Part shown: one piece after another, positions 43,993-64,000 of the stretch
Numbering within the stretch: the stretch's first letter is position 1
Layout of the letters: each line of letters starts with the position of its first letter
Virus record (IMG/VR): IMGVR_UViG_3300047172_000080
Location: 15,153-79,152 of that record
Strand: one strand, 5' to 3'
DNA: 64,000 bases
Source: a virus
Program-made: the position numbers and the translations under genes
The notes under the pieces: generated by a model
Database searches by the model: none
Seen by the model: only the letters and a program-made list of their open reading frames with translations
What the model was told of the DNA's origin: nothing

Positions 43993-44022
43993 TACATTGA
44001 AGACTACTACCAAGAAAAAACA

Positions 44023-44172
44023 ATGTCAACCGAATTGCGAAGGAATAATCACAGCGTTTCCAGATTGCTCGTGCATCTGGTTTTCGTCGTGAACGAGACG
44101 CTCAAACTCTACGTCCAGTCACAACAAACCAAAGCCGCCCTAAAGGGCGGGGTTTCAACCCACAAATTTTGA
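44023..44172 (+). pseudogene. tnpA: internally deleted IS200-type Y1 transposase
   Basis: MSTELRRNNHSVSRLLVHLVFVV fused directly to ETLKLYVQSQ; the HUH core is missing. Confidence 0.8.
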
Positions 44173-44318
44173 TGAACAAGTCGTTTTCTTCAATCATGTT
44201 TTTACAAATTAAACATGGATAAGGAGGGTAAGGTAACTCAGGCTGTAAGGGAAATCCTTGTAGTTTACGATTCGCTATTATTACCCCTAGTCTGTCGGAA
44301 GCCTTCATAATTTTGATT

Positions 44319-45821
44319 TTAAGCTCTCCATACCCATCTCTTTTTACCACAATCCCAAATCTTGTACAATCCTCTTTGATTAGCCCATTGCTCTTCTGTT
44401 AAATTAATTGGGCAATTTACTCTATTTTTTCTTTGAGATTGTTTAGAAACTCTAATATGGTTTTTTAAATCAGCGTAATCATAATCTATATCCATTTCTT
44501 TCTCTAAAGTAAAACCTAATGACTTATATACGTGTCCTTGACTCCATCTATTATCACTCCAACTCCAAATTTCATTACATTTATACTGTTCTCGAAGAAA
44601 TTTAAATAATCTAGAAGCTCCCCCTACTACTGTATAGTTAGATTTAAAACATAATCTATCTAGCCAGATTTTAGTGTCTGTAATGTCAAAAGGATGCCTA
44701 CCAAAGCTCATTACTCCTATTAACTCATTATTATAAAATAGACCGGCAAAATACTTACCAAGAGAATTTGCTCCTTGGATATGATATAACTCAATAAATT
44801 TATTAGCTTCCTGAACTTCAATTTCTCGTACTTCGCATTTACGAGCATAAAGTCTATTTTCATTCTTATTTAAAACAGATCTTAAAAAACCTTTTACTTG
44901 GTCTTTTCTTTCTAACCATTCATCTTCAAAAATAGTAATTAATCTTACTCCTTTAGCTTCACATCCTAGTCTTTTATTGTTGCGACTAGTCTTATTTTTA
45001 TTGAATAAATTAGAATGCCATCTCAATCCATTATATTCTATACCTAAGTTTATGGATTCCTCATAAAAATCTATTTCATATCCTGATAATATTTTAAAAT
45101 CAGAATTAAAATTAAAACCAAAAGAATTAAGCCAATCCTGAATAATCGCTTCTTCTTTCCCATATCCACTAACCCATGCCGAACCATATGTAGCGAATCT
45201 AGTTGTTATTTTCTGCTCACGGATTATAGCTGAATCTTTAATAATACTATTTCTTTTTAAAATACCTTGTATATTTTCTCTAGAATAACCTATTTCATTT
45301 TTATGCTTACTAGCTATTTGGTCAGCTGTTAAATTAAGAACCAAATATTCGTATCTAATAACCTCTATATTTGTTTTAGATTCTTTATAAAGAATAAGCT
45401 CATTGGGCCTTTTTATACCTAAACTAGAAGCATGTTGTTTAACATTCGTGTATTTTGTATTATAAATTTGCGTTAACTCTTCTTTAGACTTAGTTAGATA
45501 GTTGTTTTCAAATTCCTTATCATCTCCAAATTCTGTTAACTTTCGTCTATCTACATCATATTTATCTAAAATTCTATACAACGATGTTTGAGATATATTA
45601 TATTTTAAGAGTACATCTCTATAAGATAGATTTTTAAAATCTTCTACAATTACTAACTCATTTACTTTCAACGCTTTTTTATTTAAACCTAATTTTGAAG
45701 CCTTTAATTTAATGCTATGCCAAAGTCTTCCAGGTAATAAATTACAAATATCTTCTTTAGTTAATTTACAATAGCTATTAACTAATATTTCTACTTCTTC
45801 GTTTGACCAAGTTTTACACAT
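44319..45821 (-). CDS. Hef-like putative homing endonuclease (HTH repeats, PD-(D/E)xK-like domain, GNAT-like C-terminus)
   Basis: EIDFY...GIEYNGLRWHS...LITIFEDEW; YARKC...HIQG...VVGGASRLF...SDNRWS.G..Y..LGF...IWDCG. Confidence 0.7.
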   Translation of the reverse strand: MCKTWSNEEVEILVNSYCKLTKEDICNLLPGRLWHSIKLKASKLGLNKKALKVNELVIVEDFKNLSYRDVLLKYNISQTSLYRILDKYDVDRRKLTEFGDDKEFENNYLTKSKEELTQIYNTKYTNVKQHASSLGIKRPNELILYKESKTNIEVIRYEYLVLNLTADQIASKHKNEIGYSRENIQGILKRNSIIKDSAIIREQKITTRFATYGSAWVSGYGKEEAIIQDWLNSFGFNFNSDFKILSGYEIDFYEESINLGIEYNGLRWHSNLFNKNKTSRNNKRLGCEAKGVRLITIFEDEWLERKDQVKGFLRSVLNKNENRLYARKCEVREIEVQEANKFIELYHIQGANSLGKYFAGLFYNNELIGVMSFGRHPFDITDTKIWLDRLCFKSNYTVVGGASRLFKFLREQYKCNEIWSWSDNRWSQGHVYKSLGFTLEKEMDIDYDYADLKNHIRVSKQSQRKNRVNCPINLTEEQWANQRGLYKIWDCGKKRWVWRA

Positions 45822-46002: not shown

Positions 46003-46965
46003 TTAACCATTAAAATCCCACAAGCATGCACCTTTAACATTACCAATTGATATACCCAACTCAAGGTATTGAAAGAAAGACAACCACCATGCCTTATTTT
46101 CCATGTACGCCGTTAACGGCTGTAGTCTGAAGTACTTCCCAAGGAACTCTTCAGAACTGAAGGCGTATATTTGACCATCTGGAACAAGTTGGTTCTTGAT
46201 AGTATAGATTGCTTTGACACCGTTAAGAGTCTTGCAAGGAACACCATTTTCGAACATTTGCTGAGATAGATCACCACCTGCTTCATCACGACCAAATTTG
46301 ATGAAGTCCTGAGCAGTAGAGGTATTCATGAGCATAATACCCTTTGAAGAACCACCATCAGGCTGCATAGGACCGAAGGGAACTTTAAGTCTAGTGATAG
46401 ACTTGAAGGCTTCAGCTAGGTTATCACGAGTAAGACCAGGGAACTGGATATACTGAGGTAAACCTAAGCCATTAAGTGGGTTAGGGGTATTGAGCGCGCC
46501 AATAACCGCGTTAATCTTATTCATGAATCGTGAATCTACTTCAGTACCTAAGTCTTTAGTAGAAATTTCAAGAAGGATCTGGCGAATATCATAATCGTAA
46601 GTACGAAGTTTGCTGATATCTTTCTTGAAGTTAGGAGTCATGGTACGAGCGAAGAAGACAGGATAACGAGTACCTTTGAATACGAAACCATCAGGAGTGT
46701 TACCGTAAGGGACAGTTACTGCAGGAGCAACGTCTGGTTCACGATCACACCACTTAACGATAACTTCAGGGTCTTGAGCCTTGTCGAGTTCGTCATTGGC
46801 AATATCGATAGGAGTGATTACTTTTTCAGCAAAGCTGTCTTCACGTAAGATATTACGTGTATAAGCCATAGCCGAAGCTTCTGCTTCTTTAACATTACCA
46901 TTTAATACCTGATCAATGAACTGATCATTGAAGGGTTTAATTTGTTCTTTAGAGAGTTTTTCCAT
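46003..46965 (-). CDS. major capsid protein (HK97 fold, putative)
   Basis: 320 aa; follows protease, scaffold and decoration genes; strong terminator; codon usage looks highly expressed. Confidence 0.75.
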   Translation of the reverse strand: MEKLSKEQIKPFNDQFIDQVLNGNVKEAEASAMAYTRNILREDSFAEKVITPIDIANDELDKAQDPEVIVKWCDREPDVAPAVTVPYGNTPDGFVFKGTRYPVFFARTMTPNFKKDISKLRTYDYDIRQILLEISTKDLGTEVDSRFMNKINAVIGALNTPNPLNGLGLPQYIQFPGLTRDNLAEAFKSITRLKVPFGPMQPDGGSSKGIMLMNTSTAQDFIKFGRDEAGGDLSQQMFENGVPCKTLNGVKAIYTIKNQLVPDGQIYAFSSEEFLGKYFRLQPLTAYMENKAWWLSFFQYLELGISIGNVKGACLWDFNG

Positions 46966-47660: not shown

Positions 47661-49058
47661 CTAAACGTCAACATTATTTATTAAATTATTTTCTACCCAA
47701 GTATATACAGCTTCAGCTGCTTCTTCATTATTTTTATCATTAACTAAGTATTCATGATTAGGAAGTAGGTTAACATTAAAGTTTTTCATTGTAGAAATAG
47801 TATGTAATTTATGAAAACCAAAACTACCTTTGTATGATTCAGATTCTACAGCAAATGTAGAAGCAAGTTCATAAGGAGCTATTTTAATTCCTTTATTAAT
47901 TAATTCTTGTTTTCTGCTTCTATTAAAATCTGAATCATTTTCTCGTAATAATATTTGGTCACTTGGATGACAAGCTTCCAATGTGGGGTCAAATTTTAAA
48001 TCCTTCACAGCTTTAAAAAAATTCTTACTATAAAAACAAAAACCAAGATTGCCTACTTGATTATTAGGCAACCAATTCCAAGGAGAACCAATTACATCAT
48101 ATTTAAAAAATTCATCAGTCCAAGCGTAAGGATTAACAATATACCCATCAGGATGAATTTGAAGTATATGTTCAGTAAAATGCTCCAAATAATTTGAAAA
48201 TTGAGTTAACCCCCAAATACACATATCTTGCCAATGCTCAAATTTAGGAATTTTTACAAATGTAAAATTATTCATACCTAAAGATGAAGGTGGTAATTCA
48301 TTACTAAAATAAACAACTTTATCTACATCTACCCGATTATAAGAATGTTTAAGTGCCTGCAAGGTATCAGTATGATTAATAGTAGCTACAGCATATAATG
48401 TAGTATTAGGCAATTTAGGTTTAACAGGGCTATCCTCTAGTAAAGCCAATTTTGTATAAAATCTAGGTATAGCGTCTTTTTCGAAACCGAGTTCATAAGA
48501 GTTATGAAGATTTATTGTTTCTTGATGATCGTGATAGTTATATCCTTCTTCTAACTTAATCATCTTGTTATAAATTTTAGATATAACCTGAACTTCATAA
48601 TTCTCTTTTTGAAGATAATAGTTAAGCATTGTTTGTTCAGCTAAACAGATATCTTCTTTCCTATGGCTCCATACTTTCTCAAACAATTGAAAATGCTCTG
48701 GTGAATACATATATAAGCCAGCATTCAAATATTTACTAGAATCGATGTCATGCATCCAAGACACATTTTGGACAAAATCTGTATCTGTTCTATCTAAACA
48801 TGCAGTGAAGGTTTGTTTTCCGTTATTAAATATTTCTAAAGGATTCCACTTTTTTAGGCAATAAATATCAGAATCAAAGTACAAATAAGAATCTGCTTTA
48901 AACTGTTTATGAATTAAACATTTGAGCCATACAGGAGAAATACCTTTCTCTTCAAGTGTATAAACATGACATTTTAAACCTGTCATTTGCTGCATTCTTA
49001 ATGCAGCATAATAAGCGTCCTTTTTATAATTACCTACACCTAAAGTAATTCCGATCAT
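47661..49058 (-). CDS. two-domain glycosyltransferase (GT8-like plus DUF5672-like)
   Basis: YFDSD, YLNAG, EQTMLN; then IHPDGYIVNP.AW.DEFF.YD.IGSPW...GNLGF. Confidence 0.75.
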   Translation of the reverse strand: MIGITLGVGNYKKDAYYAALRMQQMTGLKCHVYTLEEKGISPVWLKCLIHKQFKADSYLYFDSDIYCLKKWNPLEIFNNGKQTFTACLDRTDTDFVQNVSWMHDIDSSKYLNAGLYMYSPEHFQLFEKVWSHRKEDICLAEQTMLNYYLQKENYEVQVISKIYNKMIKLEEGYNYHDHQETINLHNSYELGFEKDAIPRFYTKLALLEDSPVKPKLPNTTLYAVATINHTDTLQALKHSYNRVDVDKVVYFSNELPPSSLGMNNFTFVKIPKFEHWQDMCIWGLTQFSNYLEHFTEHILQIHPDGYIVNPYAWTDEFFKYDVIGSPWNWLPNNQVGNLGFCFYSKNFFKAVKDLKFDPTLEACHPSDQILLRENDSDFNRSRKQELINKGIKIAPYELASTFAVESESYKGSFGFHKLHTISTMKNFNVNLLPNHEYLVNDKNNEEAAEAVYTWVENNLINNVDV

Positions 49059-49681: not shown

Positions 49682-50612
49682 GCTGTGTTAATACTAGAGA
49701 AGCAATCTTTTCAGCATGTTCAGCATCTGCTTTTTCTGCAGCTACTTTAGCTAATTGCGCTTCTTTTGCTTTTTCTTCAGCAGTCTTTTCTGTAGTTATT
49801 TTAGAAATCTCCTGCTCAAGAGTAGCAACTTTTTCAAGTAATACATTATCAGAAGCACTCTTATAAAGATTGTCAAAATAAGCTGCACCAGCTTCTTCAG
49901 CTACTTTTTCATTAATTACAGGTTCAGAAGTTACGGTAGGTGAAGCTACTTTGATTTCAGAAGCCATTTGAGTAATTAGTTCATCAAAGTCTCTACGACC
50001 AGCTTCTTTTAAAAACGCCTTTTCAGAAGCTGACTTTTCGATATACCCACTTGATTTTAATAGATCTACAATAAGTTCAGCACCTAGATTATAAGCAGCA
50101 ATCTTCTGAGCTAATTTTTCATTTACTACAGCAGCAATTTTAGCATCACTTACGACTTTACCTGCTTCTTCTTTAGAAGGTTCCTGTTTAAATTCATTTT
50201 CATTCTTTTCAGGCTTAACTTCGTTCTTTGCAACAGTATTAGTATCAGCAGGAACTGATTCCTGTTTGGTATCGGCACCAGGAGTACCAACAACAGTTTC
50301 TTGGCCTTCTGAATATTTGGTAATTAAAGAATGAATTTCTTCTGAAAGTTTCTTTAGATCACCAGCAGATTTAACACTGTTATCACTTACGACTTTACCT
50401 GCTTCTTCTTTAGAAGGTTCCTGTTTAAATTCGTTAGTATTATTTTCTGGTTTTACTTCGTTCTTATTAATTGTATTCGTAGCAGTAGGAATAGACTCAG
50501 GTTTTGTGTCTGCGCCGGGAGTACCTACAACAGATTCTTTACCACTTGCTTGTTTACGAACAAGATTTTGAATTTGATCGACTACTGATGCATGTTTGTT
50601 TAATTTTGCCAT
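49638..50612 (-). CDS. putative scaffolding protein with duplicated ~52-aa segment
   Basis: K/E/A-rich with many K-x-A sites; VVGTPGADTK...EFKQEPSKEEAGKVVSD occurs twice. Confidence 0.6.
   Translation of the reverse strand: MAKLNKHASVVDQIQNLVRKQASGKESVVGTPGADTKPESIPTATNTINKNEVKPENNTNEFKQEPSKEEAGKVVSDNSVKSAGDLKKLSEEIHSLITKYSEGQETVVGTPGADTKQESVPADTNTVAKNEVKPEKNENEFKQEPSKEEAGKVVSDAKIAAVVNEKLAQKIAAYNLGAELIVDLLKSSGYIEKSASEKAFLKEAGRRDFDELITQMASEIKVASPTVTSEPVINEKVAEEAGAAYFDNLYKSASDNVLLEKVATLEQEISKITTEKTAEEKAKEAQLAKVAAEKADAEHAEKIASLVLTQLESKLKTKEVEITK
50145..50432. repeat. 51-bp exact direct repeat within the scaffold-like gene
   Basis: 50145-50195 is identical to 50382-50432. Confidence 0.9.
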
Positions 50613-50647
50613 ATTTGTATTTCCAGATTATTTTATATTATATTAAA

Positions 50648-51382
50648 TTATTTAGTGATTGTAAACTTTTCCTTTAACAATCTATCTACACCAGCTTCTT
50701 TTAAAATAGCTAGAGTTTGATCGTATGTTAAATTATCAGCAGATGCCTTCTCCCCAATTCCTTGGAAATAAGCCAAGGTATCTTCATCTACTTCAGAGGC
50801 TATCTTGGTAACTTGAGCTGTCTTTTGGAAAGCTACTTTACAAGTCTCAATTGAATTATTTAATGCTTCTCCATAGAAATTAACAGCATCTTCGATTGAA
50901 TAGCCTTTTGAAGAAGCACTTTTTAAGAAACCACTAATATATTCAGAAGTCTTAGCTATAGCTAAATTCTGTTGATGCTCAGGAGCCATTTCTCCCATTC
51001 CTGAGTCTTGTTGCCCACCAGCTTGTAAATGCTGAGCTACTAGAGCAGCAACCTGTTCTATTTGTTCGTCAGAAAGAGGCATTCCCTGTCCTTGACTAGG
51101 ATCTCCACCCATAGAAGGATCTTGGACAGAAGGAGCCTGATGAGGACGCCCATGATGAGCATGAGAAGGATGAGCGGGGTGTTCAGGAGGAAGAGCCGAA
51201 GGATCTGTACCTTGACTAGGATCTCCACCTTGAGACGATAAATGCGCCATTAAAGCTTCAAGTTGAGCAGGATCAACATCTTCGCCAGATGCTTGTTTAA
51301 TTACTTGAGCAACTTCTTGAACAGAGGCTCCTTGTTCCTTAGCGGCAGTTAAAAAATTTATAAAGGCTTCTTTTTCAATCAT
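50648..51382 (-). CDS. head-module protein with three leader-like helical repeats and a Q/P/H-rich linker
   Basis: AFINFLTAAKEQG, YISGFLKSASSKG, YFQGIGEKASADN. Confidence 0.6.
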   Translation of the reverse strand: MIEKEAFINFLTAAKEQGASVQEVAQVIKQASGEDVDPAQLEALMAHLSSQGGDPSQGTDPSALPPEHPAHPSHAHHGRPHQAPSVQDPSMGGDPSQGQGMPLSDEQIEQVAALVAQHLQAGGQQDSGMGEMAPEHQQNLAIAKTSEYISGFLKSASSKGYSIEDAVNFYGEALNNSIETCKVAFQKTAQVTKIASEVDEDTLAYFQGIGEKASADNLTYDQTLAILKEAGVDRLLKEKFTITK

Positions 51383-51450
51383 GGGATTTTTCTTTCGATT
51401 ATTGTTAATGTTATTATTTTATAAGATACTATACAAGTCTTTATTTACTA

Positions 51451-54063
51451 TTATCTTCTATTTACTACAAGAGTATTAATCATGAAATCATCGGTTAACT
51501 TACCTTGATCATCTAAGTAACTAAGAGCAGAAAGTTGATAATTAGCATATTTAACAGCTAATTGCTCTTCAAATAAAGATTTTGATTTAACACTAGATTC
51601 CTTTTTTAATTCTACTTTAGGTCTAGTTACTATAGTAATTCTCATGATTCTATTCTTAACAGGTTCGTCAAATAAAGAATGATCACCAGTAAGAGACTTA
51701 ACTAATTCCATAATTTCAGAAGGAACTCTTGAACTTGAACTAGGTTCAAAATCTTCATTATGTAATTCCTCATCATTATCTTTTAATTTTTCATGTATAG
51801 AAGGAAGATGAGTTTTCATTCCTTCTAAATGATCATCGTTCATTTTATTATCAAAAATATATTTAAAAAACTCCTCTGGTGTAAATATGATTCCTTTATC
51901 TGCAAGAGCTTTGAGTAATTGATGATGATCAAATTTACGTAATTCGCTAATAGTTTTATCTGATATTTCAGATGAGTAATTAATTTTAGGAAGTTCATTC
52001 TTAATGAACTTATCTCTGGAATTTTCAACTTTACCAGAAGCTATCATATCAATATGTTTTTCTAACTTAGCTAGTTTATTAACAATTGATCTTTTATTAG
52101 ATGCAAACTTAGAAAGAGTTAAAGAAGGAGGAAGATATATTTCTGCAGCTTGTTTTAAATTATTAGTATAACGATCTTGAATATTATTGCTATCTGAAGC
52201 ATTTTTTTCCAAATTATTTAATGAATAAGCTACTCTATCAGCAGGACGCCTTACTTTACTAATTTCAAAGAACTCAGGGTCTGGATTTAACATTCCTACC
52301 ATTTTACCTTCTTTAGTAATCTCACCTAATTGAGAAGGGATATGCTTACATCTTTTTTTAGCATCAGGAGCTTTATGTCCACAAATAGAACAAACATCGT
52401 AAGGTACTTGGCAATTTGAAACCCCTATAAAATTAGCAACAAAAGAATGATCCCCTGGAATAGTTAAATCATATACTTTTTCTTGAAGGTGAATTTTTTC
52501 AATTTTATAAATTTGATGATAAACACATGACCCTTCAATGTAGCATCTCTGTTTTTTAATAGAATAAGGCAGAGATATTTTGTCTTTTCCTTGATACTTA
52601 AGTCCAGTTAAATTTCTGGTCATTAACCGCTCAGAATATCCATATTCTTTAGGTATTTTATACAAACTCAAATATTTAATCTGGTCCGAATTAAATTTAA
52701 TTGTGTAAGAGGTGCATTTTTTACTTTTACACTTACCAAAGACAGCAATGATATTATTTCTCCACGCTAACTGGCATAATTGCCATATCAAGATTTTAGA
52801 AATAGATGAGCCGATTACAATATGGTGATTTTTATGCCAAGAACCATCTCCTTCTAAATACTTCTCCAATACAATTTTTTGAGTCGTTAAAGGCCATTCC
52901 ATTACCTCTTGAGAAAGCTTTTTAGATCTAGCATACTTACCACCATCTCTTACAAGCTTGTTAAGTAAGTCTATATTTCTACATCTTATTACACGTTTAG
53001 TATTCTCGGGTCTTTCATACTCACTAATTTGTCTCTCTTCTATACCTAAAGCTAATAAAGCTTTTTTTAATTCATTACAATATTCAACTTCTTTAATGTT
53101 AAAAGTCCAATCTATATTCCAATAGTATTTTGAATATTTCTTAGGCGTATAAGCATTTCCTTCTGCTAAATAATAACCTAGTACAATTGCGTAATTTAAA
53201 TCAATTGTAGTTGTCAAAACATAATTAGAAAAAGGAGTAGAAACAAAGTCTCCAACTCTTAAATCTTTAGCAAGTCTATAACCTTCTGCAGCTTTCGAAA
53301 AATTTCTATAAGCTTCCTGATGTGCTATATCTTTGATTTGATGTAAATGGGATCGTAATTGACTAAAACTTTTTCCACATGCAGGACATTTACAATTTTT
53401 TTGATATTTAGGTCTTACCCAAATAGGATGATCATTTGTTGATATTGCTTCATCAGGCAAACCATAGCACTTTAAAAGTATACCTTCATCATCATAAGCT
53501 CGACTCATTGTATGAGAAACAGTTCCTAAATTACCTTGTCTAGTAATAACAGTATCTCCTACAGCAATATCTTTAATCATTCTCTCAGTATTATTAGATA
53601 ATAACACCGGAGTATTTCCTGGAAAACAAGCCATACTAAAAGCTTGTTGTTTACCTGTAGCTATCTTATGGAGTGCTTCTTCATTCTTTGGATTCTTTTC
53701 ATCTAATCCAATCATTAATTCAACACGCTTCATTTTCTTATGATAATCAGAAGCATGAATCTTACCATATACGGGGTCAGTTATTTTATTCTTGTGATTC
53801 TCATGTACTCTACCTGATTTAACAAAAGTATGATGACATCTATCTAAATCATCTTCTAACCAATAATCTCCATTTCTATTATGCCCTGTTGATTCACAAG
53901 CACTAAGAGCTAATAAGTGAACTGGAACTTGATCTTTCCCAACCTTAACATTTTTAAATCTTTCACTACCTGCACGTTTATGTAGTTGTTTCCAATCTGT
54001 GATAATCGCCACAGGTTCAACATCTGTTTTAAAATCGTCTGTAGTACTAAATTTAACTAGCAT
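51451..54063 (-). CDS. putative prohead/capsid maturation protease containing an intein
   Basis: Extein NRNGD...H.NH...FSMA|CQVPYDVCSICG...CKHI...FFEISKV..PAD; sits upstream of scaffold and capsid genes. Confidence 0.65.
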   Translation of the reverse strand: MLVKFSTTDDFKTDVEPVAIITDWKQLHKRAGSERFKNVKVGKDQVPVHLLALSACESTGHNRNGDYWLEDDLDRCHHTFVKSGRVHENHKNKITDPVYGKIHASDYHKKMKRVELMIGLDEKNPKNEEALHKIATGKQQAFSMACFPGNTPVLLSNNTERMIKDIAVGDTVITRQGNLGTVSHTMSRAYDDEGILLKCYGLPDEAISTNDHPIWVRPKYQKNCKCPACGKSFSQLRSHLHQIKDIAHQEAYRNFSKAAEGYRLAKDLRVGDFVSTPFSNYVLTTTIDLNYAIVLGYYLAEGNAYTPKKYSKYYWNIDWTFNIKEVEYCNELKKALLALGIEERQISEYERPENTKRVIRCRNIDLLNKLVRDGGKYARSKKLSQEVMEWPLTTQKIVLEKYLEGDGSWHKNHHIVIGSSISKILIWQLCQLAWRNNIIAVFGKCKSKKCTSYTIKFNSDQIKYLSLYKIPKEYGYSERLMTRNLTGLKYQGKDKISLPYSIKKQRCYIEGSCVYHQIYKIEKIHLQEKVYDLTIPGDHSFVANFIGVSNCQVPYDVCSICGHKAPDAKKRCKHIPSQLGEITKEGKMVGMLNPDPEFFEISKVRRPADRVAYSLNNLEKNASDSNNIQDRYTNNLKQAAEIYLPPSLTLSKFASNKRSIVNKLAKLEKHIDMIASGKVENSRDKFIKNELPKINYSSEISDKTISELRKFDHHQLLKALADKGIIFTPEEFFKYIFDNKMNDDHLEGMKTHLPSIHEKLKDNDEELHNEDFEPSSSSRVPSEIMELVKSLTGDHSLFDEPVKNRIMRITIVTRPKVELKKESSVKSKSLFEEQLAVKYANYQLSALSYLDDQGKLTDDFMINTLVVNRR
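52414..53628 (-). mobile_element. intein (405 aa) with LAGLIDADG homing endonuclease
   Basis: Starts CFPGNTPV; TNDHP block B; LGYYLAEG and YLEGDG motifs; ends VYDLTIPGDHSFVANFIGVSN before Cys+1. Confidence 0.92.
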
Positions 54064-54069
54064 AAATTA

Positions 54070-54510
54070 TTACTGCATTGGCATTGGCTGAGCTTCAGGT
54101 TGTTGAGGTTGAGAGCTATGAGACATAGCTTTACCTGCTCCGTATAATCCAGCTGCACCTAAACCACCTACTGCTCCAACTGTTCCTACACCTTTAAGTA
54201 AATCCATTAAATGCTTATCTCTAGCTTGCATATGCCCTATTTGTTCATCACCAATAGCCAGTGGATTAGACCATGGGGCACTTTTAGCATGTTCATGCAT
54301 TCCTTTATAATTATCAGGTATATGAGTAACGTCATTATAACGATTCATTCCAAACTCTTTAGCTTTACCTAAACCACTCATAAAAAGAGCTTTGAGTTCT
54401 TCTAGATTAGCTGGAAAAGCTTGTTTAACTAAACTAGTAATTTCATCTCTTGTAAAACCATATTGTTGAGCACGTTTTACAAAACCATTTACCATTGATT
54501 GTTTGTTCAT
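54070..54510 (-). CDS. GFxKxA-leader cargo protein with Gly-zipper
   Basis: MNKQSMVNGFVKRAQQYGFTRDEITSLVKQA, then GVGTVGAVGGLGAAGLYGAG. Confidence 0.7.
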   Translation of the reverse strand: MNKQSMVNGFVKRAQQYGFTRDEITSLVKQAFPANLEELKALFMSGLGKAKEFGMNRYNDVTHIPDNYKGMHEHAKSAPWSNPLAIGDEQIGHMQARDKHLMDLLKGVGTVGAVGGLGAAGLYGAGKAMSHSSQPQQPEAQPMPMQ

Positions 54511-54517
54511 AATTTTA
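54415..54517. repeat. 103-bp direct repeat copy A (leader-encoding)
   Basis: Matches 58017-58119 with one mismatch (54492/58094). Confidence 0.95.
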
Positions 54518-54938
54518 TTTCTATGTTATCCATCAAGTATCCAATACCCCCACCTAGAGCCATACCTCCTAATCCACTACCTAACGCTAAAGCACCATGA
54601 TGCATTAATGCACGAGAAGACATGTTTGTAGCTGATAAGGCATCCATGTGAAGTATACCAGGAGTAACTCCTAGCATTAATCCTAAATTTGTATCTTTAT
54701 AAGGATTAGGTTTAGATTCTGTTTTTTTTAAATTTGCTTCCTTTGCATTCATATTTATTTGTTGGTTATTATTTCTATTTTTAAATTTATCATACAAAAA
54801 TATAGAGGCTGCAGTACTTGGAACTGCTTTAGTATAAGCATTTATATATTTTGAACCATGATTTTTAAAATGTTTATATAATGAAGGTAAACCTGTAGCT
54901 TCTAAATATTTAACTCCTGAGCCATTCATATTATTCAA
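54507..54938 (-). CDS. Gly-zipper protein
   Basis: GALALGSGLGGMALGGGIGYL. Confidence 0.6.
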   Translation of the reverse strand: MNNMNGSGVKYLEATGLPSLYKHFKNHGSKYINAYTKAVPSTAASIFLYDKFKNRNNNQQINMNAKEANLKKTESKPNPYKDTNLGLMLGVTPGILHMDALSATNMSSRALMHHGALALGSGLGGMALGGGIGYLMDNIEIKL

Positions 54939-55851
54939 ATTTCCCTTCTGTCATTCTACGATTTTTCATCCATTCCTGGACTTTAGGTTTTCCATAAATT
55001 TTCTTCTGAGCATAACTCATCAAAGGAGATAAGGCCATTCCAGCTAGCCCTGCAGCAGCAGCACCTCCAGCTATTCTAGGATTAATATGTGACGCAAAGT
55101 TCTTTACCTTACCTAAAGGATCAACAGAACGATAAGCTGCTTTACGTGCAATATCTCCAGAACTTAAATCATTTCTTTTTCCTAGTTCTTGTACAATATT
55201 TTTAAAATGATGCCCTTGTGGTTGTTCTCCAGGTTTTAAAGAAGATTTAGGAAAGTTAGAACTTAATGTTCTAATTAATTGTGCATCGTTAGCTCCTTCT
55301 AATTTTGTACGAGAAGGTTCTAAACTATGATAGAAATCACTATATAAACCTACTCCATCCCCTTTAGAATTAAAATGTTTTTTAGTATCCCCAGTAGGAT
55401 TTTTAAACTTATCTAATACAGGAACTTCATCTACAGATTCAGGAAATACTCTAGAAAGATCAGGGCGTTCTAAAAAGTCTTTTTCTGATAAACCTTTAGA
55501 CCCATCTTTTTTACCATAACTAGCTTTATTTTTGGTTATCTCTCTTTGAAGAAGATGATCCTTTAACAAGCTATGCCCTACTTGACCACCAATAACTCCA
55601 GTAGCTAGTACAGGAGCTTTATTTAATAAATCATGAATAGTCGCTTGAATAGGATGTTTGTCATAAAAGGTTTCTACTTCTTTATTTTTTTTACCAATAA
55701 GATATTGAGTAGAATCTAAACCTTTTAAACTATCATCTAGTAGTTGATTAGAATCACTTTTTTCAAAGCTATCTAAATCAGGTCGTCTCTGATCTAGATA
55801 ATCAGAAATCATTCTGTGTAAGTGTTCAGGATTGTTTAAGTCTATTGGCAT
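54931..55851 (-). CDS. basic protein with Gly/Ala hydrophobic helices
   Basis: VLATGVIGG; IAGGAAAAGLAGMAL. Confidence 0.6.
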   Translation of the reverse strand: MPIDLNNPEHLHRMISDYLDQRRPDLDSFEKSDSNQLLDDSLKGLDSTQYLIGKKNKEVETFYDKHPIQATIHDLLNKAPVLATGVIGGQVGHSLLKDHLLQREITKNKASYGKKDGSKGLSEKDFLERPDLSRVFPESVDEVPVLDKFKNPTGDTKKHFNSKGDGVGLYSDFYHSLEPSRTKLEGANDAQLIRTLSSNFPKSSLKPGEQPQGHHFKNIVQELGKRNDLSSGDIARKAAYRSVDPLGKVKNFASHINPRIAGGAAAAGLAGMALSPLMSYAQKKIYGKPKVQEWMKNRRMTEGKFE

Positions 55852-55862
55852 AAAATTATAAA

Positions 55863-56132
55863 TTATCCGCGAGCGGCTGTTGTAGCAATAGGATCAGATA
55901 CTGTAGTGGCAGACTCAGGAATACCATGTGTGTTACTAAACACCTTACCCATTCCAAGATTAACCTTAGGTGAAGCAGGCATAGGTGGAGGAGGTTGCAT
56001 AGGGGGGGTCATAGGAGCCATTGTGGGAACCATTTGATTCGATATTTTATACAAAAGTGCTTCTGCTTCTTGGGTAGATAATCCTCGTTGCTTAGCTCTT
56101 TTTATAAAACCATTCTTAAAAAAGTTATTCAT
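55863..56132 (-). CDS. GFxKxA-leader protein with Pro-rich tail
   Basis: MNNFFKNGFIKRAKQRGLSTQEAEALLYKIS. Confidence 0.65.
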   Translation of the reverse strand: MNNFFKNGFIKRAKQRGLSTQEAEALLYKISNQMVPTMAPMTPPMQPPPPMPASPKVNLGMGKVFSNTHGIPESATTVSDPIATTAARG

Positions 56133-56133
56133 A

Positions 56134-56730
56134 TTACAATGCTCTATATGTACCTAATTGATTATTAGCAAATTGACGTTCTTTAGAAAGAGTATCAAAG
56201 GTTGTTTGCATATTGCCAGGGTGTGTTAACTTCTTTAATGAGGTAACATCTTGTTTAGTTTTATTAAAGTGTTTTACACCTCCTGCTAAAGCACCTATAC
56301 CTAACCCTACAGCTCGGCTCCAACCAGGAAGATGTTTAACTAAACTTGTATACTTTGGATTTACTAAAGAAGATGCAGCTTCTCCTGCGAGATGCCCAGC
56401 ACCAAAACCAGCAACGCCACCTAAGATGCCATGACCTACTCCTGATTTAACTCCTTCAATATCAGGATTACGATCATAATATTTATCTCTAAGTTTTAAA
56501 ATATCTTGATTGTATTCACGAGCATATGGGTGAGTATCATCTACATTATAAGCAGGACTTTTTCCTCTTTCAGCCAACATATCTTTAATGTTCTGAAAAT
56601 CCTCAGGTGAGTAATCTGAATTAGCAACTTTACTGACTTCATGATTATACATCGCTTCAGATTCTTCTGTAGTATAACCTTTATCAAAAGCTGACTTCAT
56701 GAAACCATATTTAAAATATTGAGTAAGCAT
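56134..56730 (-). CDS. GFxKxA-leader cargo protein with two Gly-zippers
   Basis: MLTQYFKYGFMKSAFDKGYTTEE...KVA; GILGGVAGFGAG; AVGLGIGALAGG. Confidence 0.65.
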   Translation of the reverse strand: MLTQYFKYGFMKSAFDKGYTTEESEAMYNHEVSKVANSDYSPEDFQNIKDMLAERGKSPAYNVDDTHPYAREYNQDILKLRDKYYDRNPDIEGVKSGVGHGILGGVAGFGAGHLAGEAASSLVNPKYTSLVKHLPGWSRAVGLGIGALAGGVKHFNKTKQDVTSLKKLTHPGNMQTTFDTLSKERQFANNQLGTYRAL

Positions 56731-56736
56731 ATAATT

Positions 56737-57594
56737 TTAACCTTGTACTTGAGGATCTCCTTGATAAGCCGCTTGAGGAGTTGGTTGAGGAGTTGGTTGA
56801 GGAGTTGGTTGAGAAGCATTAGCTATCTGATTTATAAAAGGAGTAGCTACAAACGGTGCGGCTGTTCCACCGATTGTACCAAGTAACCCAGGCTTTTTCG
56901 TAGATGTTTGACCTATAAAATTTATAAATTTATCCGTTAAACTTCTAGATTTAACTCCATTCAATGCTGCTTTTCTCGCAGCCATTGCTCCCAATGCTTC
57001 TGCACCTTCGTAACCACCCCATCCAGCCAATCCTTGACCTAAGAGTTCAATTAACAACGGTAAAATAGCTTCTTTAGTAAAACCTGCATTCTTCATCAAT
57101 GTAGGTAGTGCTTCTTTAGTAACTCCTTTACTCATTGCTTGTTTAGCAAATCCTTCTGTATAAGAATCAACTGCTGATTTTTTATGCATTGAATGTACAC
57201 CCATTCCTAAACCTACAGCACCTACACCAAGAGAACCAACTCCTTTAGTAATCTCCACGTTGTTATCATGCTTCTCTTTTCTCCATGCATCCCAATCAAA
57301 CGTAGGATCATAACTATACGGTTCTTTATCTGCTAATGCCTTAACTTTAGCTATATTGTCAGGAAGGTGGTTAACTGGGTTTACAATATGTTGTTTAAAT
57401 AAAGCGGAGAGAGAAGCTTTCTTTTCAGGTAAACCAGTATGTTTTGTTTTAGTGAAATGCTTTAGTGATGCAGAAGAAATACCTTTAGCCGCTTCTTGAG
57501 CTTTAGGAGATAATTTTTTCATATAGGTAGGATGTTGCTTTGCATTTTCTAAAGCGTACATAAATCTGGATTGAGATTTAGAAGAACTAGGCAT
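56737..57594 (-). CDS. multi-module protein: DUF3008-like N-terminus, internal GFxKxA leader, Gly-zippers, PTPQ repeats
   Basis: MPSSSKSQSRFM...FTKTKHTGLPEKK; YTEGFAKQAMSKG; 12-bp tandem repeat at 56773-56813. Confidence 0.65.
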   Translation of the reverse strand: MPSSSKSQSRFMYALENAKQHPTYMKKLSPKAQEAAKGISSASLKHFTKTKHTGLPEKKASLSALFKQHIVNPVNHLPDNIAKVKALADKEPYSYDPTFDWDAWRKEKHDNNVEITKGVGSLGVGAVGLGMGVHSMHKKSAVDSYTEGFAKQAMSKGVTKEALPTLMKNAGFTKEAILPLLIELLGQGLAGWGGYEGAEALGAMAARKAALNGVKSRSLTDKFINFIGQTSTKKPGLLGTIGGTAAPFVATPFINQIANASQPTPQPTPQPTPQAAYQGDPQVQG

Positions 57595-57599
57595 TATAC

Positions 57600-58112
57600 T
57601 TAAATATTTGTATTTGTATTAAACTGACCAGCTGTTGATTGAGGTGCGTTCTTTTTATCCAGATGCTGCTTTAACAAACTATAAAGTCCTAAAGCTCCTG
57701 CTCCACCTAAAGCATATTGTCCTATAGGACCAGTAGCCATAGTATTAAAATGATCATGAATTCCTCCTGGAGAAGGGCCATTTAATACACTTTCTTGATA
57801 AGCTCTTTCGTGTTCATCATCAATCATACCCAATCCTGGTTGGTCATAGTTATTATGAGGTTCAAAATCATGCTGCTCAAACCTCTGTGGATCAGGTAAT
57901 GAAATACCTTTACGCACATTTTTAATATGTTGAGCCATAGCCATTTGGTCAAATCCATGACGTTCTGGGACTTTCATAAAAGAACGCCCTAAAGCTTTTG
58001 CCACTAGGTCACCTCTAAAAGCTTGTTTAACTAAACTAGTAATTTCATCTCTTGTAAAACCATATTGTTGAGCACGTTTTACAAAACCATTTATCATTGA
58101 TTGTTTGTTCAT
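57600..58112 (-). CDS. GFxKxA-leader cargo protein with Gly-zipper (true start probably 58112)
   Basis: MNKQSMINGFVKRAQQYGFTRDEITSLVKQA; ALGGAGALGLYSLL. Confidence 0.7.
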   Translation of the reverse strand: MNKQSMINGFVKRAQQYGFTRDEITSLVKQAFRGDLVAKALGRSFMKVPERHGFDQMAMAQHIKNVRKGISLPDPQRFEQHDFEPHNNYDQPGLGMIDDEHERAYQESVLNGPSPGGIHDHFNTMATGPIGQYALGGAGALGLYSLLKQHLDKKNAPQSTAGQFNTNTNI

Positions 58113-58119
58113 AATTTTA
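58017..58119. repeat. 103-bp direct repeat copy B
   Basis: Matches 54415-54517 with one mismatch. Confidence 0.95.
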
Positions 58120-58512
58120 AGAAGTAGGAAAATTAACAATTGTTTGATTAGTCCAAGTATCTGCTGTAGCAATTAAAGTAGTTACTGCAGTATTAAAAGC
58201 AGCAATAAATTGTGTAGCAAAATAAGCTGCTTGTTGTTGAGCATACTCACTAGATAAAATTGGATTTGAAGGATCGAACTGAATAGTAAAAGGTAAATCA
58301 GAAATTAGTCTAATCACTTGAGTAGGAAGAGTAAATGCAGGAACTGAACCTCCTGGTGTGTATAACCCTCCAATCGAAATTGTAGGTTCTCCAAAATCTT
58401 GAATAGCTTTAGAAAAAGCTTGAGAAATTTGATTATTGAATACAGAAAAAGTTAAAACGAAAACTCCATTCTGTACTGAGTTAACTTGAGATAAAGATAC
58501 TTGGGTAGACAT
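58117..58512 (-). CDS. putative virion protein
   Basis: Low-charge composition like the structural proteins. Confidence 0.5.
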   Translation of the reverse strand: MSTQVSLSQVNSVQNGVFVLTFSVFNNQISQAFSKAIQDFGEPTISIGGLYTPGGSVPAFTLPTQVIRLISDLPFTIQFDPSNPILSSEYAQQQAAYFATQFIAAFNTAVTTLIATADTWTNQTIVNFPTS

Positions 58513-58516
58513 AAAA

Positions 58517-59776
58517 TTATTGATTAAGAGCCATTAGTTTTTGTTTAAGTAAAGATAAATCTAATTCGCTTATTTGTCCTGCAGCATGTGGTGCAAGAGC
58601 TTGTCCGCTAACCATTTGACGTAAGATTGCTTTCAATACTTCTTTCTGTAAAGCAACCTGAGGAGCAATTTTAACTACTTGTTCAAAAGCAGCTATAACA
58701 TCTGAATGATTTTCTTTTTTTAGAATTGGATCACGTAAAAGTAAATCTTGAAGGATAGCTTGTCTTTCAAAGTTATCCATGACTGAGTTACCTGAAACAG
58801 AGGGTTTTTTAGGAGCTTCCCCTTTAGCTTTTTCAGCTACATTTTTAAAAATCTCATCTAAAAAACCAGCATACTTATCCTGCCCTTCATTCGTTGAAGA
58901 AAGAGTTAGTTCTGTAGGTTTTTTTTTTAACTCTTCAGCTTGTTTATAAATCTCAGCAATATAATCTTTTTCAAATTTGACATTATATTCTGCATCTTCT
59001 GCTTCTTTTTCAGAAGCTAACATTTCATCACTATATTTATAGAACTTTTCCAGTTGATTTAACTCAGGGCAGTTATCAAAGAATTGATAACCTTTATCGT
59101 GGATACCACGTTCTTCAGTTAACCTAGCTTGCTTATAAAGAAGATCCAACATTGGAGTAATTTCTTCTCCAAATTTAGAAATAGCTTGAGATTCAAATTC
59201 TTCAAAACTAGTACGATGCCCTGCATCTTTTCTAAAACTGTCCGCTAAATTAAAAAAACAAGCTTCCATGTTATTCTTTGCTTCGATTTTTGCAATCTTG
59301 GCGTTCATGGCTTCTTTTTCTAACTTAGCAATATAATGTGCTGATTTTTCTAAAACCGCTTTATCAGATAACTGATTAGGTTGATTTTTAGGAGTATCCG
59401 CAATTTTAAGATAAGCTTCCTTATGTAAGGGGCTTGTAAAGATCTTATCTAAATCAGGAATAGGATTAAACAATTCGACAGGAGGAAATTGTTCAGAATT
59501 AAAATGATTAGCTGTCTTTTCATTTTCATTATACAACTCTTTAATAACACCTTGAATATCTGCTAAAGGAAATTCAGCAGCTTTATCACTAGCTGTTTTA
59601 TAATGATTATAATAAAGCGCAGTATTTAAACCTTCGCCAGTACGTTGAATAAAATCATATTTAAGGTCATAATACTCAGCTGCCTTTTTTAAGGCTTCAG
59701 TAGGATTAGTGCCTTTATTAATTTCATTAACTGAATATTGAAGGGCCTCTTTAATGAGGAGATTTGGATTTTCCAT
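58517..59776 (-). CDS. K-x-A-rich head-associated protein
   Basis: Many KEA/KTA/KSA/KQA/KYA sites; C-terminal LLLRDPIL...AP.VA motif. Confidence 0.55.
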   Translation of the reverse strand: MENPNLLIKEALQYSVNEINKGTNPTEALKKAAEYYDLKYDFIQRTGEGLNTALYYNHYKTASDKAAEFPLADIQGVIKELYNENEKTANHFNSEQFPPVELFNPIPDLDKIFTSPLHKEAYLKIADTPKNQPNQLSDKAVLEKSAHYIAKLEKEAMNAKIAKIEAKNNMEACFFNLADSFRKDAGHRTSFEEFESQAISKFGEEITPMLDLLYKQARLTEERGIHDKGYQFFDNCPELNQLEKFYKYSDEMLASEKEAEDAEYNVKFEKDYIAEIYKQAEELKKKPTELTLSSTNEGQDKYAGFLDEIFKNVAEKAKGEAPKKPSVSGNSVMDNFERQAILQDLLLRDPILKKENHSDVIAAFEQVVKIAPQVALQKEVLKAILRQMVSGQALAPHAAGQISELDLSLLKQKLMALNQ

Positions 59777-59821
59777 AAAGCTATTTAGTTATTATGCTGA
59801 TAATTAGACTATTATTCAATT

Positions 59822-60961
59822 CTATTCTTTAACGATTTCTTCGATAGATTTAATAACAGGAGGAGGATTAGATTTAATAGCTGATTGATAAAGATGGTCC
59901 ACTACACCTAAAGATTCAGAATCTGAATCTAGTATATTATTTGAACCAGATGAAATTCTACTTTTCATGCATTCTGTACTTGTTTTTATATTCTCTTCTT
60001 TAACGTTTATAAGTTTTGAACCTTCTCTGGCTATATCTTGACGTATATGCTCACTAATAGCTTTATTCCAATTTATAGCATCCTTACCTGTACGAATTGC
60101 CATCTTAAGATTAAACAAGTTATCTAACGCTGAATTTAATAAGTATTGTTTAATAAAAGTTCGTTCAAGATTACTTAAAGTTTGAGGAGCTAATCTTGAT
60201 CTCAAACCTACATCACCCATTTCATTAATAAGCTTATAGAAATCAAAATCTACATCCGAAGCTATATCATTATCTACAAGCTGTCGTAAATAAGCTGTAT
60301 TAGCCACACCATCTTTTGGAGCATTTGAAAAATCGAAGAAAAGATATCTTAAAGCCTCGATTACTTTAGGTTTAAACCTATACTTTATAGCTATATCTAA
60401 ATCCTTAATACCCAAATAAATATGATAACCTATATGACGTAAGAGAACTTCATTTGATACTGATTGTCTAAAAGATATAGCGTAGTCAATAAATTCATCA
60501 AATTCTACATTAGTATAGTACCTAATTAATTTTTGAATAAATTCATCTTTAATATTTTCTAACTGTTTAACTCGCCAAATCCACCTATGAATAGATAAAT
60601 CACTTTTTTTAGTATACGTGAATCGTTTCCTATTTTCACTTCTTAATCTTAATAGTTGAAGGTGCTCGAATACGTCTCTTTCTTCACTATTAAGTTCTCT
60701 ATAAATTGCTACTCCTTGAGGACTTAATGCACAATTATTACAATATGTGGTTCTATCATTAGGATTAACAAAACGTTTTAAATAACTACCATGAAGTGTA
60801 TTAGATCTAGGATTTGGTACAACTTCTGTAGTGGAGGGATTTACTGGCATAGGTCTTCTAAAAGTATTTAATTTAGCTATAGGATGTTGAAACATATGAA
60901 ATCGCCAATCAGGGCGATGGCATATAGCCCCTACTTTAGGAAATGTAACAATATTAAACAT
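59822..60961 (-). CDS. hypothetical protein
   Basis: 379-aa ORF. Confidence 0.6.
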   Translation of the reverse strand: MFNIVTFPKVGAICHRPDWRFHMFQHPIAKLNTFRRPMPVNPSTTEVVPNPRSNTLHGSYLKRFVNPNDRTTYCNNCALSPQGVAIYRELNSEERDVFEHLQLLRLRSENRKRFTYTKKSDLSIHRWIWRVKQLENIKDEFIQKLIRYYTNVEFDEFIDYAISFRQSVSNEVLLRHIGYHIYLGIKDLDIAIKYRFKPKVIEALRYLFFDFSNAPKDGVANTAYLRQLVDNDIASDVDFDFYKLINEMGDVGLRSRLAPQTLSNLERTFIKQYLLNSALDNLFNLKMAIRTGKDAINWNKAISEHIRQDIAREGSKLINVKEENIKTSTECMKSRISSGSNNILDSDSESLGVVDHLYQSAIKSNPPPVIKSIEEIVKE

Positions 60962-62069
60962 TTTTTCTTGCTGGATGACTCAGATAGGAACCTAATCCAG
61001 ATAAACCTGCACCTAGTAAAGCAAAAGATAATACAGGTTTTGCCATAGCTCTAGGATGAAGAGAACTCAATACTTCTGAAGGAGAAAACTTAGTAGGAGC
61101 TTTAGGCTTCATATCTTTTAAAGATTTGAGTAACCCCACATTAGCTCTTCCAAAGGCTGCTCTACCAGAAGAATTTAACCCATGTAACCCTTGTTCCTTT
61201 AACTTGGTGTTACTTCTTCCTCTAAATTTAGATTGTAACTTAGATTGAATAATTTCATGTAATTTACTATCTACTTTATATTTAAGAGGTGATATAAGAT
61301 TATGGGTTAACTTACCTACACTCTTTAGTCCTTGCGTAGCTGTAGCCAATCCTGCGCCTAATCCTGCCCCTTGTAGAACATTATGAAAATGATCTGAAGT
61401 AGGATCAATATTTTTATCTTTATGTAAATTATTAAGGATAGCTAAATCAGCTCCAGGAAATGCAGACATATTAGGATGTTCATTTAATACCTTTGAAGCA
61501 TTGTCTAAATTTTGTTTATCAAATTTAGCTGAACTACTAGTTAAAGCTGGAATAGTTCCAAAAACTGCACCCTGAGCCATTCCTTGTGTAACTGATTGTC
61601 TGAGATATCTTTTTAATTCATTTTTAGCTTCAGGAGTTTTAAAATTATCTTTAAATGTAATTCTAGGTCTTTCTCCTTTTAATAAATTATGTAGACCTGG
61701 GAGATGAAAAGATTTTTCAGCAAGTCCAAAACCTAAAGATAGAGGTATGGAACCTAAGCCAAATTTAGCTGCAGAAGTTAAAGCCTCCCTCATTACAGGA
61801 TGATCTTTTTTAGAAGCTCTTTGAATTTTATGTACTGCTTGTGCTACTTGTTCTTTACGTTCTGTAGGATCTTTAGACAAGATAGCTGCTGTAGGAAGAA
61901 CGTTGGCAAAAGCAGATCCTACTGGTCTAAGTGAAGGAATATCTTCTACAAAATCTGTGGCTAAAAACTTATGAGGTTTATTTTGATAAACGTAATCTCG
62001 TAAGGTATTAAGAGCTAACCAATCCTTACCTAGATTTTGTGTTGATTTATCATGGTTATCATTTGGCAT
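60954..62069 (-). CDS. basic protein with several Gly-rich hydrophobic helices
   Basis: FGLGSIPLSLGFG; GAGLGAGLA; LLGAGLSGLGSYL. Confidence 0.6.
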   Translation of the reverse strand: MPNDNHDKSTQNLGKDWLALNTLRDYVYQNKPHKFLATDFVEDIPSLRPVGSAFANVLPTAAILSKDPTERKEQVAQAVHKIQRASKKDHPVMREALTSAAKFGLGSIPLSLGFGLAEKSFHLPGLHNLLKGERPRITFKDNFKTPEAKNELKRYLRQSVTQGMAQGAVFGTIPALTSSSAKFDKQNLDNASKVLNEHPNMSAFPGADLAILNNLHKDKNIDPTSDHFHNVLQGAGLGAGLATATQGLKSVGKLTHNLISPLKYKVDSKLHEIIQSKLQSKFRGRSNTKLKEQGLHGLNSSGRAAFGRANVGLLKSLKDMKPKAPTKFSPSEVLSSLHPRAMAKPVLSFALLGAGLSGLGSYLSHPARKNV

Positions 62070-62081
62070 TTTTTAACCATG

Positions 62082-64000
62082 TTAAGAATCAAGTACATCC
62101 TGTTGGGACATGTTAATTGTTAGTTCAGGAGATTTTCTCTTTAAGAATATGATAACATCTCCTAGATTACGAAAAACGTCAGTAAGCAGTTCTACAAACT
62201 TTGGCATGTCATCACGACCATACATTTGTGTAAACTTATCTGTTTCCCAGTGAGTAAGGAATAATAATCTACCAAGCTTATCTAAAGCCCCTAATAAAGC
62301 TGGAGTATATTCAGTAATCTTATCCTCAGGATTAACATACTTAGCTAAAGTAGCGATAGTATGAGTATCGAAGATTTCTTTCTGCCCACTTTCAGCTAAT
62401 TGGGTAGCTCTTTCAATTTCTCCATTAATCCCATCAAGATCAGGCTTAACTCCTAAACCCATTCTGGTAGGATCTTTATCGTAAGAATTATCAATTGGAG
62501 CCATTTTCTCAGAACCAACTCCTGAATAAGTGGGTGTACCAAATTCATCAGCATAAGGAACTTCTTCATCAGGTTGAGCAGGGTAAGCACCTAAATCTGC
62601 AACTTTAAGATAGCCTTTGATTTTATAAGTAGGTTTAATACCATCAATAACTTCTGAAGCTTGTTTCCAATCCATTCCTAAATCTTTAACCATGGCTATT
62701 TTAGCCGTGCGACTATTCTTGAAATGTTTTTTAAATTCTTTAACACTAACAAAATATTCACTACCTGTATTATGTACAGTCATAGGATATACTTGTCTAT
62801 CGCTAAGAATACCTGTAATAGAAGAAACTGGTCCTGGTTTACCCTGATCGTATTTTACTAATTCTTCCACTGCCCAAGGTTTTCTAACAATGATACTTAA
62901 TAGTTTAAAACCAGCGGGGATATAAATATTATTATTTTTATATGTAAATCTACCCCCTGATGATTTAGTCATAGTAATATAAAAATGACTTTCCTTATGA
63001 GGAGGAGTAAAGAAATTACCAGCTGGTAAGTCATGAATACTACCGGGGCGGTCTGAAAGAACTTTACCGCGTCTACTCAATTCTTCTATTTCATAAGCTT
63101 TAACAGGGGATACTTTTAATTTACGTAATCCTGAAGAATCTTTAAAATTAGCTTCTACTTTAAAAGGAACAGATGCTTTTAATTTTTCATTAATTAATAC
63201 ATAAGTATGATCAAATGAAGGTTTAACACTCGCAGCATCTTCGAACTGTTTATAAATATCAGAAAGATCAGCAATTCTAATTTGATCTTTAGTGAACAAT
63301 TTTGAATTATCAACTATGTAAGCTTGCCCTTTACTTGATTCTGAATCTAAGTCTACAACAATAGCATCATTTGTAGCATAAGGTAAATCTAACTGATTAG
63401 GTCTTACTAATACTAAACCATATCTAATCTCCCCAGTTTTCGTAATATACGGGTAGAAGCCAGACTCACTAGGATTAGTAAAACTTTGAGTAACATTAAC
63501 AGGAGCAAATTTAGATTTCTTACTATCGGGACGTTTATCAATTACTAAAAAGCCTTTAGTAGCTAATTCTTCTTTTTCTGCTGGAGCTAAACTCTTTGTA
63601 TCAAAAGATTCACCATCATTTAAAATTCTAACTTCTCCAGAATCGCGATATTCTTTTCCAGGACGTTCAGCTGGAGTAATAGCTTCCGCAATCTTTTCAA
63701 TTGGATAATAACGAAGAAGTGCTTCACAAAAGTCTGCATTGCTCTCAATAGCATACTTAAGTAACGACTTAGTTTCATTATTCTGATCTTTTACATAATC
63801 TAAACAAGAAGCATAAGTATATTTTCCTGTACGAGGAGGAGCAACCATATTACGCATATCCATTGCGGGCATATCCGCTTGAATAGATTGTCTGGTTTCA
63901 TTAGATGGTTGACCTGCATCCTGTGCGTCATCTTTTAAAAACAAATTAGCAAACTCTTCATTAAGAGGATAAAATTGTTCATGATCCTTAGAATAAAGTA
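62082..64000 (-). CDS. large conserved-looking phage protein, 5' part outside the window
   Basis: Frame stays open from 63944 to the window edge (LYSKDHEQFYPLNEEFANLFLKD...). Confidence 0.65.
   Translation of the reverse strand, partial: LYSKDHEQFYPLNEEFANLFLKDDAQDAGQPSNETRQSIQADMPAMDMRNMVAPPRTGKYTYASCLDYVKDQNNETKSLLKYAIESNADFCEALLRYYPIEKIAEAITPAERPGKEYRDSGEVRILNDGESFDTKSLAPAEKEELATKGFLVIDKRPDSKKSKFAPVNVTQSFTNPSESGFYPYITKTGEIRYGLVLVRPNQLDLPYATNDAIVVDLDSESSKGQAYIVDNSKLFTKDQIRIADLSDIYKQFEDAASVKPSFDHTYVLINEKLKASVPFKVEANFKDSSGLRKLKVSPVKAYEIEELSRRGKVLSDRPGSIHDLPAGNFFTPPHKESHFYITMTKSSGGRFTYKNNNIYIPAGFKLLSIIVRKPWAVEELVKYDQGKPGPVSSITGILSDRQVYPMTVHNTGSEYFVSVKEFKKHFKNSRTAKIAMVKDLGMDWKQASEVIDGIKPTYKIKGYLKVADLGAYPAQPDEEVPYADEFGTPTYSGVGSEKMAPIDNSYDKDPTRMGLGVKPDLDGINGEIERATQLAESGQKEIFDTHTIATLAKYVNPEDKITEYTPALLGALDKLGRLLFLTHWETDKFTQMYGRDDMPKFVELLTDVFRNLGDVIIFLKRKSPELTINMSQQDVLDS

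Follow-up and report, generated by a model that had tools for sequence, protein, structure and literature searches.

The stretch of DNA analysed here, referred to as the window, comprises 64,000 nucleotides (positions 15,153 to 79,152) of the IMG/VR record IMGVR_UViG_3300047172_000080, an AT-rich (34% GC) sequence judged 39% complete and attributed to a myovirus through a sheath match. It contains two small genes, P1 and P7, whose 5' ends share a nearly identical 103-bp sequence encoding an N-terminal leader. All genes around this repeat pair lie on the minus strand, arranged in the order of transcription as a group of conserved genes, a gene for a protein of 131 amino acids (aa), P7, five further small genes, P1, a putative protease gene, and genes for two scaffold-like proteins. 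The repeat copies and the two genes that carry them are as follows.

54415..54517, minus strand: repeat copy A, covering 7 nt upstream plus codons 1-32 of P1
58017..58119, minus strand: repeat copy B, covering 7 nt upstream plus codons 1-32 of P7, and opening with the TAA stop codon of the 131-aa gene that precedes P7
54070..54510, minus strand: P1, 146 aa, with leader module, helix, variable linker, Gly-rich segment and polar tail; relative, L003_4774
57600..58112, minus strand: P7, 170 aa, with a layout as in P1; full-length relative, P0087

Direct base-by-base comparison showed that 102 of 103 bases are shared by 54415-54517 and 58017-58119, and a repeat search together with a blastn self-comparison (E 2.5e-46) placed the copies in direct orientation with a spacing of 3602 bp, only these two copies being present in the whole 79-kb viral record. 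The block includes the 7 nt preceding the ATG (at 54510 in P1 and 58112 in P7) and exactly codons 1-32 of both genes, the last residues being KQAF; identity drops sharply on either side, with 8 of the next 13 nt matching. The sole mismatch, C at 54492 versus T at 58094 on the plus strand, is a nonsynonymous transition that yields Val7 in P1 and Ile7 in P7. A first-pass annotation of this DNA had described a 103-bp repeat with one differing base, extending from 7 nt of the initiation region to codon 32 and ending after KQAF, and both the repeat and its extent agree with the alignment.

Eighty related loci were gathered through alignment of the protease, and a hidden Markov model (HMM) of the leader was seeded from four leaders of the window and iterated on the open reading frames (ORFs) of these loci. 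The model yielded a module of about 24 aa, consisting of an aromatic-x-x-G-F-x-K-x-A-x-x-x-G core and an acidic helix ending in L-x-K-x-A, a motif that closes the module in most members. In the AlphaFold2 model of P1, two helices span residues 3-16 and 21-31 (predicted local distance difference test, pLDDT, about 80) and are followed by a break at residue 32, past which a third, weaker helix precedes a low-confidence remainder. The position of this break indicates that the identity block stops at the module boundary. The first-pass annotation had taken the exchanged unit to be the leader up to a supposed cleavage site; the leader module stands as that unit, while the seven upstream bases, TAAAATT, resemble the stop-plus-AT-rich start context usual in neighbouring genes, and their identity therefore says little about whether the initiation region was exchanged as well.

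The event that produced the repeat is recent. The P1 and P7 leaders have 99% DNA identity, which extends to synonymous sites, whereas the P1 leader is only 47-50% identical to the other two leaders of the window, which are 56% identical to each other; the recency proposed by the first-pass annotation is thus borne out. Across the clade, the mean leader identity was 34% within genomes and 37% between genomes (permutation p = 0.99), which rules out pervasive concerted evolution of leaders within genomes. No near-identical DNA repeat over a leader was found in the other related loci, the most similar within-genome pair (in L003, the closest locus) reaching 64% aa and 58% DNA identity and not being recent, and no independent contig emerged when viral and metagenome contigs were searched for the exact leader pattern. 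Since within-genome identity does not exceed between-genome identity, the likeness of P1 and P7, as judged from these comparisons, is the outcome of a single recent event, which is rare and not part of a pervasive homogenisation.

The downstream parts, or cargos, of the two proteins have a much older history. The downstream part of P1 aligned with that of L003_4774 with a score of 163, compared with 29.8 +/- 5.4 for shuffled sequences. A phmmer search with P7 over 1.84 billion representatives retrieved P0087, a 163-aa protein from another metagenome (residues 2-148, E 7e-12), and the downstream parts of these two proteins are related with z = 14. Both L003_4774 and P0087 carry their own diverged leader of the same family, and the leader junction reads KQAG then RGD in P0087 and KQAF then RGD in P7; the P7 downstream part accordingly bore such a leader long before the 103-bp event. 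Profiles built from cargos only, P7 with P0087 on one side and P1 with L003_4774 on the other, matched with an hhalign probability of 85% (E 6.6e-6), and the cargos of P0087 and L003_4774 gave z = 7.8. P1 and P7 also have the same overall layout, i.e., a two-helix module of about 24-32 aa, a variable linker, a Gly-rich hydrophobic segment, and a short polar tail. On the strength of these profile comparisons, P1 and P7 are ancient full-length paralogs whose downstream parts are remotely homologous.

A near-identical tract in old paralogs, each having a relative in which the tract has diverged, is the signature of non-reciprocal recombination, and the repeat is probably the product of a recent gene conversion between the anciently diverged P1 and P7, with a tract confined to the conserved leader module. 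According to this mechanism, P1 and P7 would have started as anciently diverged paralogs within a fast-evolving family of small proteins encoded upstream of the protease; a recent non-reciprocal recombination, be it gene conversion or copy-choice, would then have replaced the beginning of one gene with that of the other. The tract would begin near the start codon and reach codon 32, halting at the end of the conserved module, because no nucleotide similarity remained beyond it. That conversion rather than another form of recombination was involved is inferred. The short near-identical tract with sharp edges, the anciently diverged homologous flanks, and the separate relatives are all features of gene conversion between dispersed paralogs; what differs here is that donor and recipient are indistinguishable and that the case is known from one record. 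A manual count gives the leader common to P1 and P7 much the same similarity to its counterparts in L003_4774 and P0087 (about 17 of 32 residues), so that neither direction of copying is favoured. In L003 the P1 relative comes first in the array, a place taken by P7 in the window, which implies that the array has also been rearranged.

The leader belongs to a larger family. A two-helix N-terminal module of about 24-32 aa occurs widely among head gene clusters in an uncultured clade of large myoviruses: it is present in about 20 of the closer loci, and four proteins of the window carry it at the N-terminus. About half of its instances stand at the N-terminus of small proteins; the rest are internal, chiefly in the product of the scaffold-like gene that immediately follows the protease. 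The 30 distinct proteins with an N-terminal module, from about 20 related loci, fall by BLAST into 20 clusters of downstream parts, Gly-rich segments being present in most of these. A plainly distinct cargo behind this type of leader occurs directly 5' of the L003 protease: the 137-aa protein encoded there (L003:8892-9305) has a leader-like beginning fused to a phosphopantetheine-binding, acyl-carrier-like domain (Pfam PF00550, E 5e-5, above cut-off). A 75-aa ORF at 33386-33613 (minus strand), which adjoins the tail sheath gene and is resembled by L015_20763, also starts with the module (HMM E 4e-7), so that the module is not restricted to the head cluster.

Some observations weigh against gene conversion between old paralogs. 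The similarity of the P1 and P7 cargos lies mostly in the Gly-rich segment (p = 0.0003) and the tail, and the homology leans on these parts; no similarity was detectable between the central regions of about 70-90 aa (p = 0.37). The module was undetected in the head cluster of Salmonella phage Arash, the nearest cultured phage, which is a distant relative. Finally, the two copies might not lie on one DNA molecule as drawn, should the contig be an assembly artefact or a chimera of two strains. The record is a metagenome-derived contig of limited completeness (39%), and no independent contig carrying the leader turned up in the searches of viral and metagenome contigs, both of which would suit such an origin; however, the copies differ at one base, both run in frame into intact genes tightly coupled to their neighbours, and P1 and P7 each have an independent relative elsewhere. 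Moreover, with two repeat copies the drawn order is the only linear path that uses all segments, a point reached by reasoning and not by computation. An artefact is therefore very improbable.

The abrupt end of the identity after codon 32 and the central parts without detectable similarity would also fit a leader freshly grafted by recombination onto a new, unrelated protein, as the first-pass annotation had proposed, and so would the many downstream parts on which the leaders of the clade sit and which BLAST cannot link, including the acyl-carrier-like one of L003. Such a novel leader-cargo fusion is nevertheless unlikely, given that a leader of this family, with a matching junction, is already present in P0087, which is related to P7 over its full length, and that remote homology links the P1 and P7 lineages when profiles of the cargos alone are compared. 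Homology of the downstream regions, which the annotation itself had named as evidence against grafting, is found at the distant level (hhalign, z = 7.8) but is not detectable in the central region, and the proposal of a new cargo is not upheld. Selection on nucleotides, for instance for an RNA structure or a translation signal common to both genes, might be invoked since the block takes in the start region; yet the RNA fold is no better than that of shuffled sequence (z = 0.13), the other leader genes of the operon have no such nucleotide identity, the seven upstream nucleotides are a generic start context, and no relatives keeping the same nucleotides with covarying pairs were found in the 80 loci or in viral and metagenome contigs, all of which renders this explanation scarcely credible. 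Equally hard to sustain is a recent duplication of the whole gene followed by very fast divergence outside the leader: the architecture common to P1 and P7 would be expected from it, but a leader with about 1% DNA divergence next to a saturated remainder is incompatible with one duplication date, and the distinct relatives of P1 and P7 in other genomes effectively refute it. Gene conversion between the two paralogs is hence retained as the preferred explanation.

The remaining genes of the array and the head cluster discussed here are listed below.

54507..57594, minus strand: the five genes between the repeat copies, as a block
54507-54938, minus strand: gene between the repeat copies
54931-55851, minus strand: gene between the repeat copies
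55863-56132, minus strand: leader-bearing gene between the repeat copies
56134-56730, minus strand: leader-bearing gene between the repeat copies
56737-57594, minus strand: gene between the repeat copies, with a DUF3008-like N-terminus
58117..58512, minus strand: conserved 131-aa gene 5' of P7, whose stop codon forms the first three bases of repeat copy B
51451..54063, minus strand: putative head-maturation protease, 870 aa, with a 405-aa intein and exteins at 53629-54063 and 51454-52413
50648..51382, minus strand: scaffold-like protein directly after the protease, with one internal module copy at residues 148-170 (leader HMM)
46003..46965, minus strand: major capsid protein candidate, 320 aa, which anchors the head gene cluster

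The product of 46003-46965 shares 30% identity (E 8e-25) with the annotated major capsid protein of Arash, and the intein-less homologs of the protease (84 found, 457-483 aa) match PHROG 18299, 'head maturation protease', with E-values from 1e-7 to 1e-10. Because of these two matches, the region around the repeat pair is assigned, by homology, to a head gene cluster. Three of the five genes between the repeat copies have relatives in L003. The scaffold-like protein at 50648-51382 also shows, by alignment, a weaker N-terminal likeness to the leader module. Other searches were negative: neither the protease exteins nor the array proteins had a match in Pfam, the array proteins gave sub-threshold noise only against Pfam and PHROGs, and the protease profile retrieved nothing meaningful from solved structures. 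The portal candidate and the relatives of the scaffold-like proteins had no matches in PHROGs, and the portal assignment is therefore positional. A megablast of 50000-64000 against cultured phages returned no close relative, a search of viral contigs for related loci with the 419-aa neighbour and with P7 returned nothing, and an ESM Atlas search with P7 gave low-score leads only.

Further features were noted in and around this cluster. The 405-aa intein of the protease is inserted at FSMA|C, and most homologs are intein-less; in L005, L019, L028 and L029, however, protease versions of 852-985 aa align along the whole intein-bearing protein, indicating that an intein in the protease gene recurs in the clade. 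The protein encoded at 56737-57594 has PHROG matches for its DUF3008-like start (E 1e-5), its relative in L003 (L003:5401-6831) is much longer (476 aa; Pfam DUF3008, E 0.006), and a leader-like stretch in the middle of the protein was seen by eye only, the leader HMM having missed it at the cutoff used. Within the L003 array, a 358-aa gene (L003:3516-4592), whose product combines helix-turn-helix and DUF559/restriction-endonuclease-like domains, probably represents the insertion of a mobile endonuclease; it is followed by a 50-aa Gly-rich ORF, which was considered as a remnant of a P7-like gene and rejected, the similarity being only marginal (p about 0.03). Part of the 324-aa scaffold-like gene is present twice, as a direct repeat within the gene at 50145-50575 (158-194 nt, 77-82% identity). 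The 465-aa protein encoded at 47661-49058 has a DUF5672 match and no counterpart in the related loci, which hold one or two small leader-bearing proteins at this place, between the 139-aa and 176-aa genes; it looks like a replacement or an insertion within the head cluster. Just past the capsid gene, 40850-45821 contains an AAA ATPase-like gene and a 500-aa homing-endonuclease/Mom-like protein, and ORFs overlap on both strands at 42811-44172.

With regard to function, the internal proteins of phage T4 carry N-terminal capsid targeting sequences of 10-19 aa that are removed by the protease, and the capsid-targeting propeptides of IPII and IPIII are identical. These two are the closest precedent for two head-protein genes with an identical leader. 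As in T4 IPI, IPII and IPIII, a short N-terminal sequence is common to several otherwise divergent head-associated proteins, and the genes lie near those of the protease and scaffold. Unlike the T4 sequences, the module described here is a longer, two-helix hairpin of 24-32 aa and also occurs internally in scaffold-like proteins; moreover, any packaging, cleavage or ejection would be a prediction for the present system, which is known from genes alone. Pfam scans found no similarity between the module and the T4 propeptide family, the protease, having no Pfam match, could not be placed in the T4 gp21 family, and membership of the leader proteins in the T4 family is not supported by their sequences. 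A 'structural' proteome is available for Arash, but at 116 proteins it is too inclusive to help place the leader proteins. In the giant phages phiKZ and SPN3US, families of paralogous head proteins near the morphogenetic protease are described in two reports (PMC5694885, PMC7411985); the arrangement is similar to the present one, although no sequence relationship to this clade was found, and the latter is known from its genes alone.

Since the module recurs inside the scaffold-like protein beside the protease, and since its genes lie upstream of the protease, the analogy with T4 tentatively suggests that it might dock P1-type proteins onto the scaffold core of the prohead, a role to which we give somewhat less than even chances. 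A broader and more doubtful proposal is that the helical hairpin serves as a portable docking tag, mimicking a scaffold repeat and bringing diverse proteins into the proheads of these uncultured phages, the cargos being Gly-rich, membrane-active-looking proteins and even an acyl-carrier-like domain. If this were true, the 103-bp tract would be a homologous exchange of tags between cargo genes, caught in progress, and the clade would possess a second system of packaging tags, one with no homology to the capsid targeting sequence of T4. Cleavage after KQAF is a conjecture; on alignment, K-x-A is no more than the conserved terminus of the second helix.

In T4, recombination between direct repeats, even of 6-10 bp, drives deletions and segmental amplifications (PMC9391042). 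A 103-bp direct repeat flanking 3.6 kb would qualify as a substrate, and by this analogy it could, in principle, delete or duplicate the 3.6-kb block; the deletion or amplification of the array foreseen by the first-pass annotation is plausible to that extent, although, in contrast to T4, the present case is known from one record, in which no deletion or duplication variant was observed. Loss of the block may be costly to the phage, because three of its genes have relatives in L003.

Taken by itself, the event would be an ordinary gene conversion between paralogs, whose resulting direct repeat could destabilise a 3.6-kb block of head genes. The tract nevertheless dates a recombination event in a head-associated protein family that has no annotation in Pfam or PHROGs, and it shows the conserved module at the N-terminus acting as a unit of recombination in its own right. 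Of greater interest than the 103-bp event is the wider leader family: if the module is a packaging tag, a phage clade unrelated to T4 would possess a counterpart to the T4 capsid targeting sequence, and this would help explain how such phages vary the contents of their heads.

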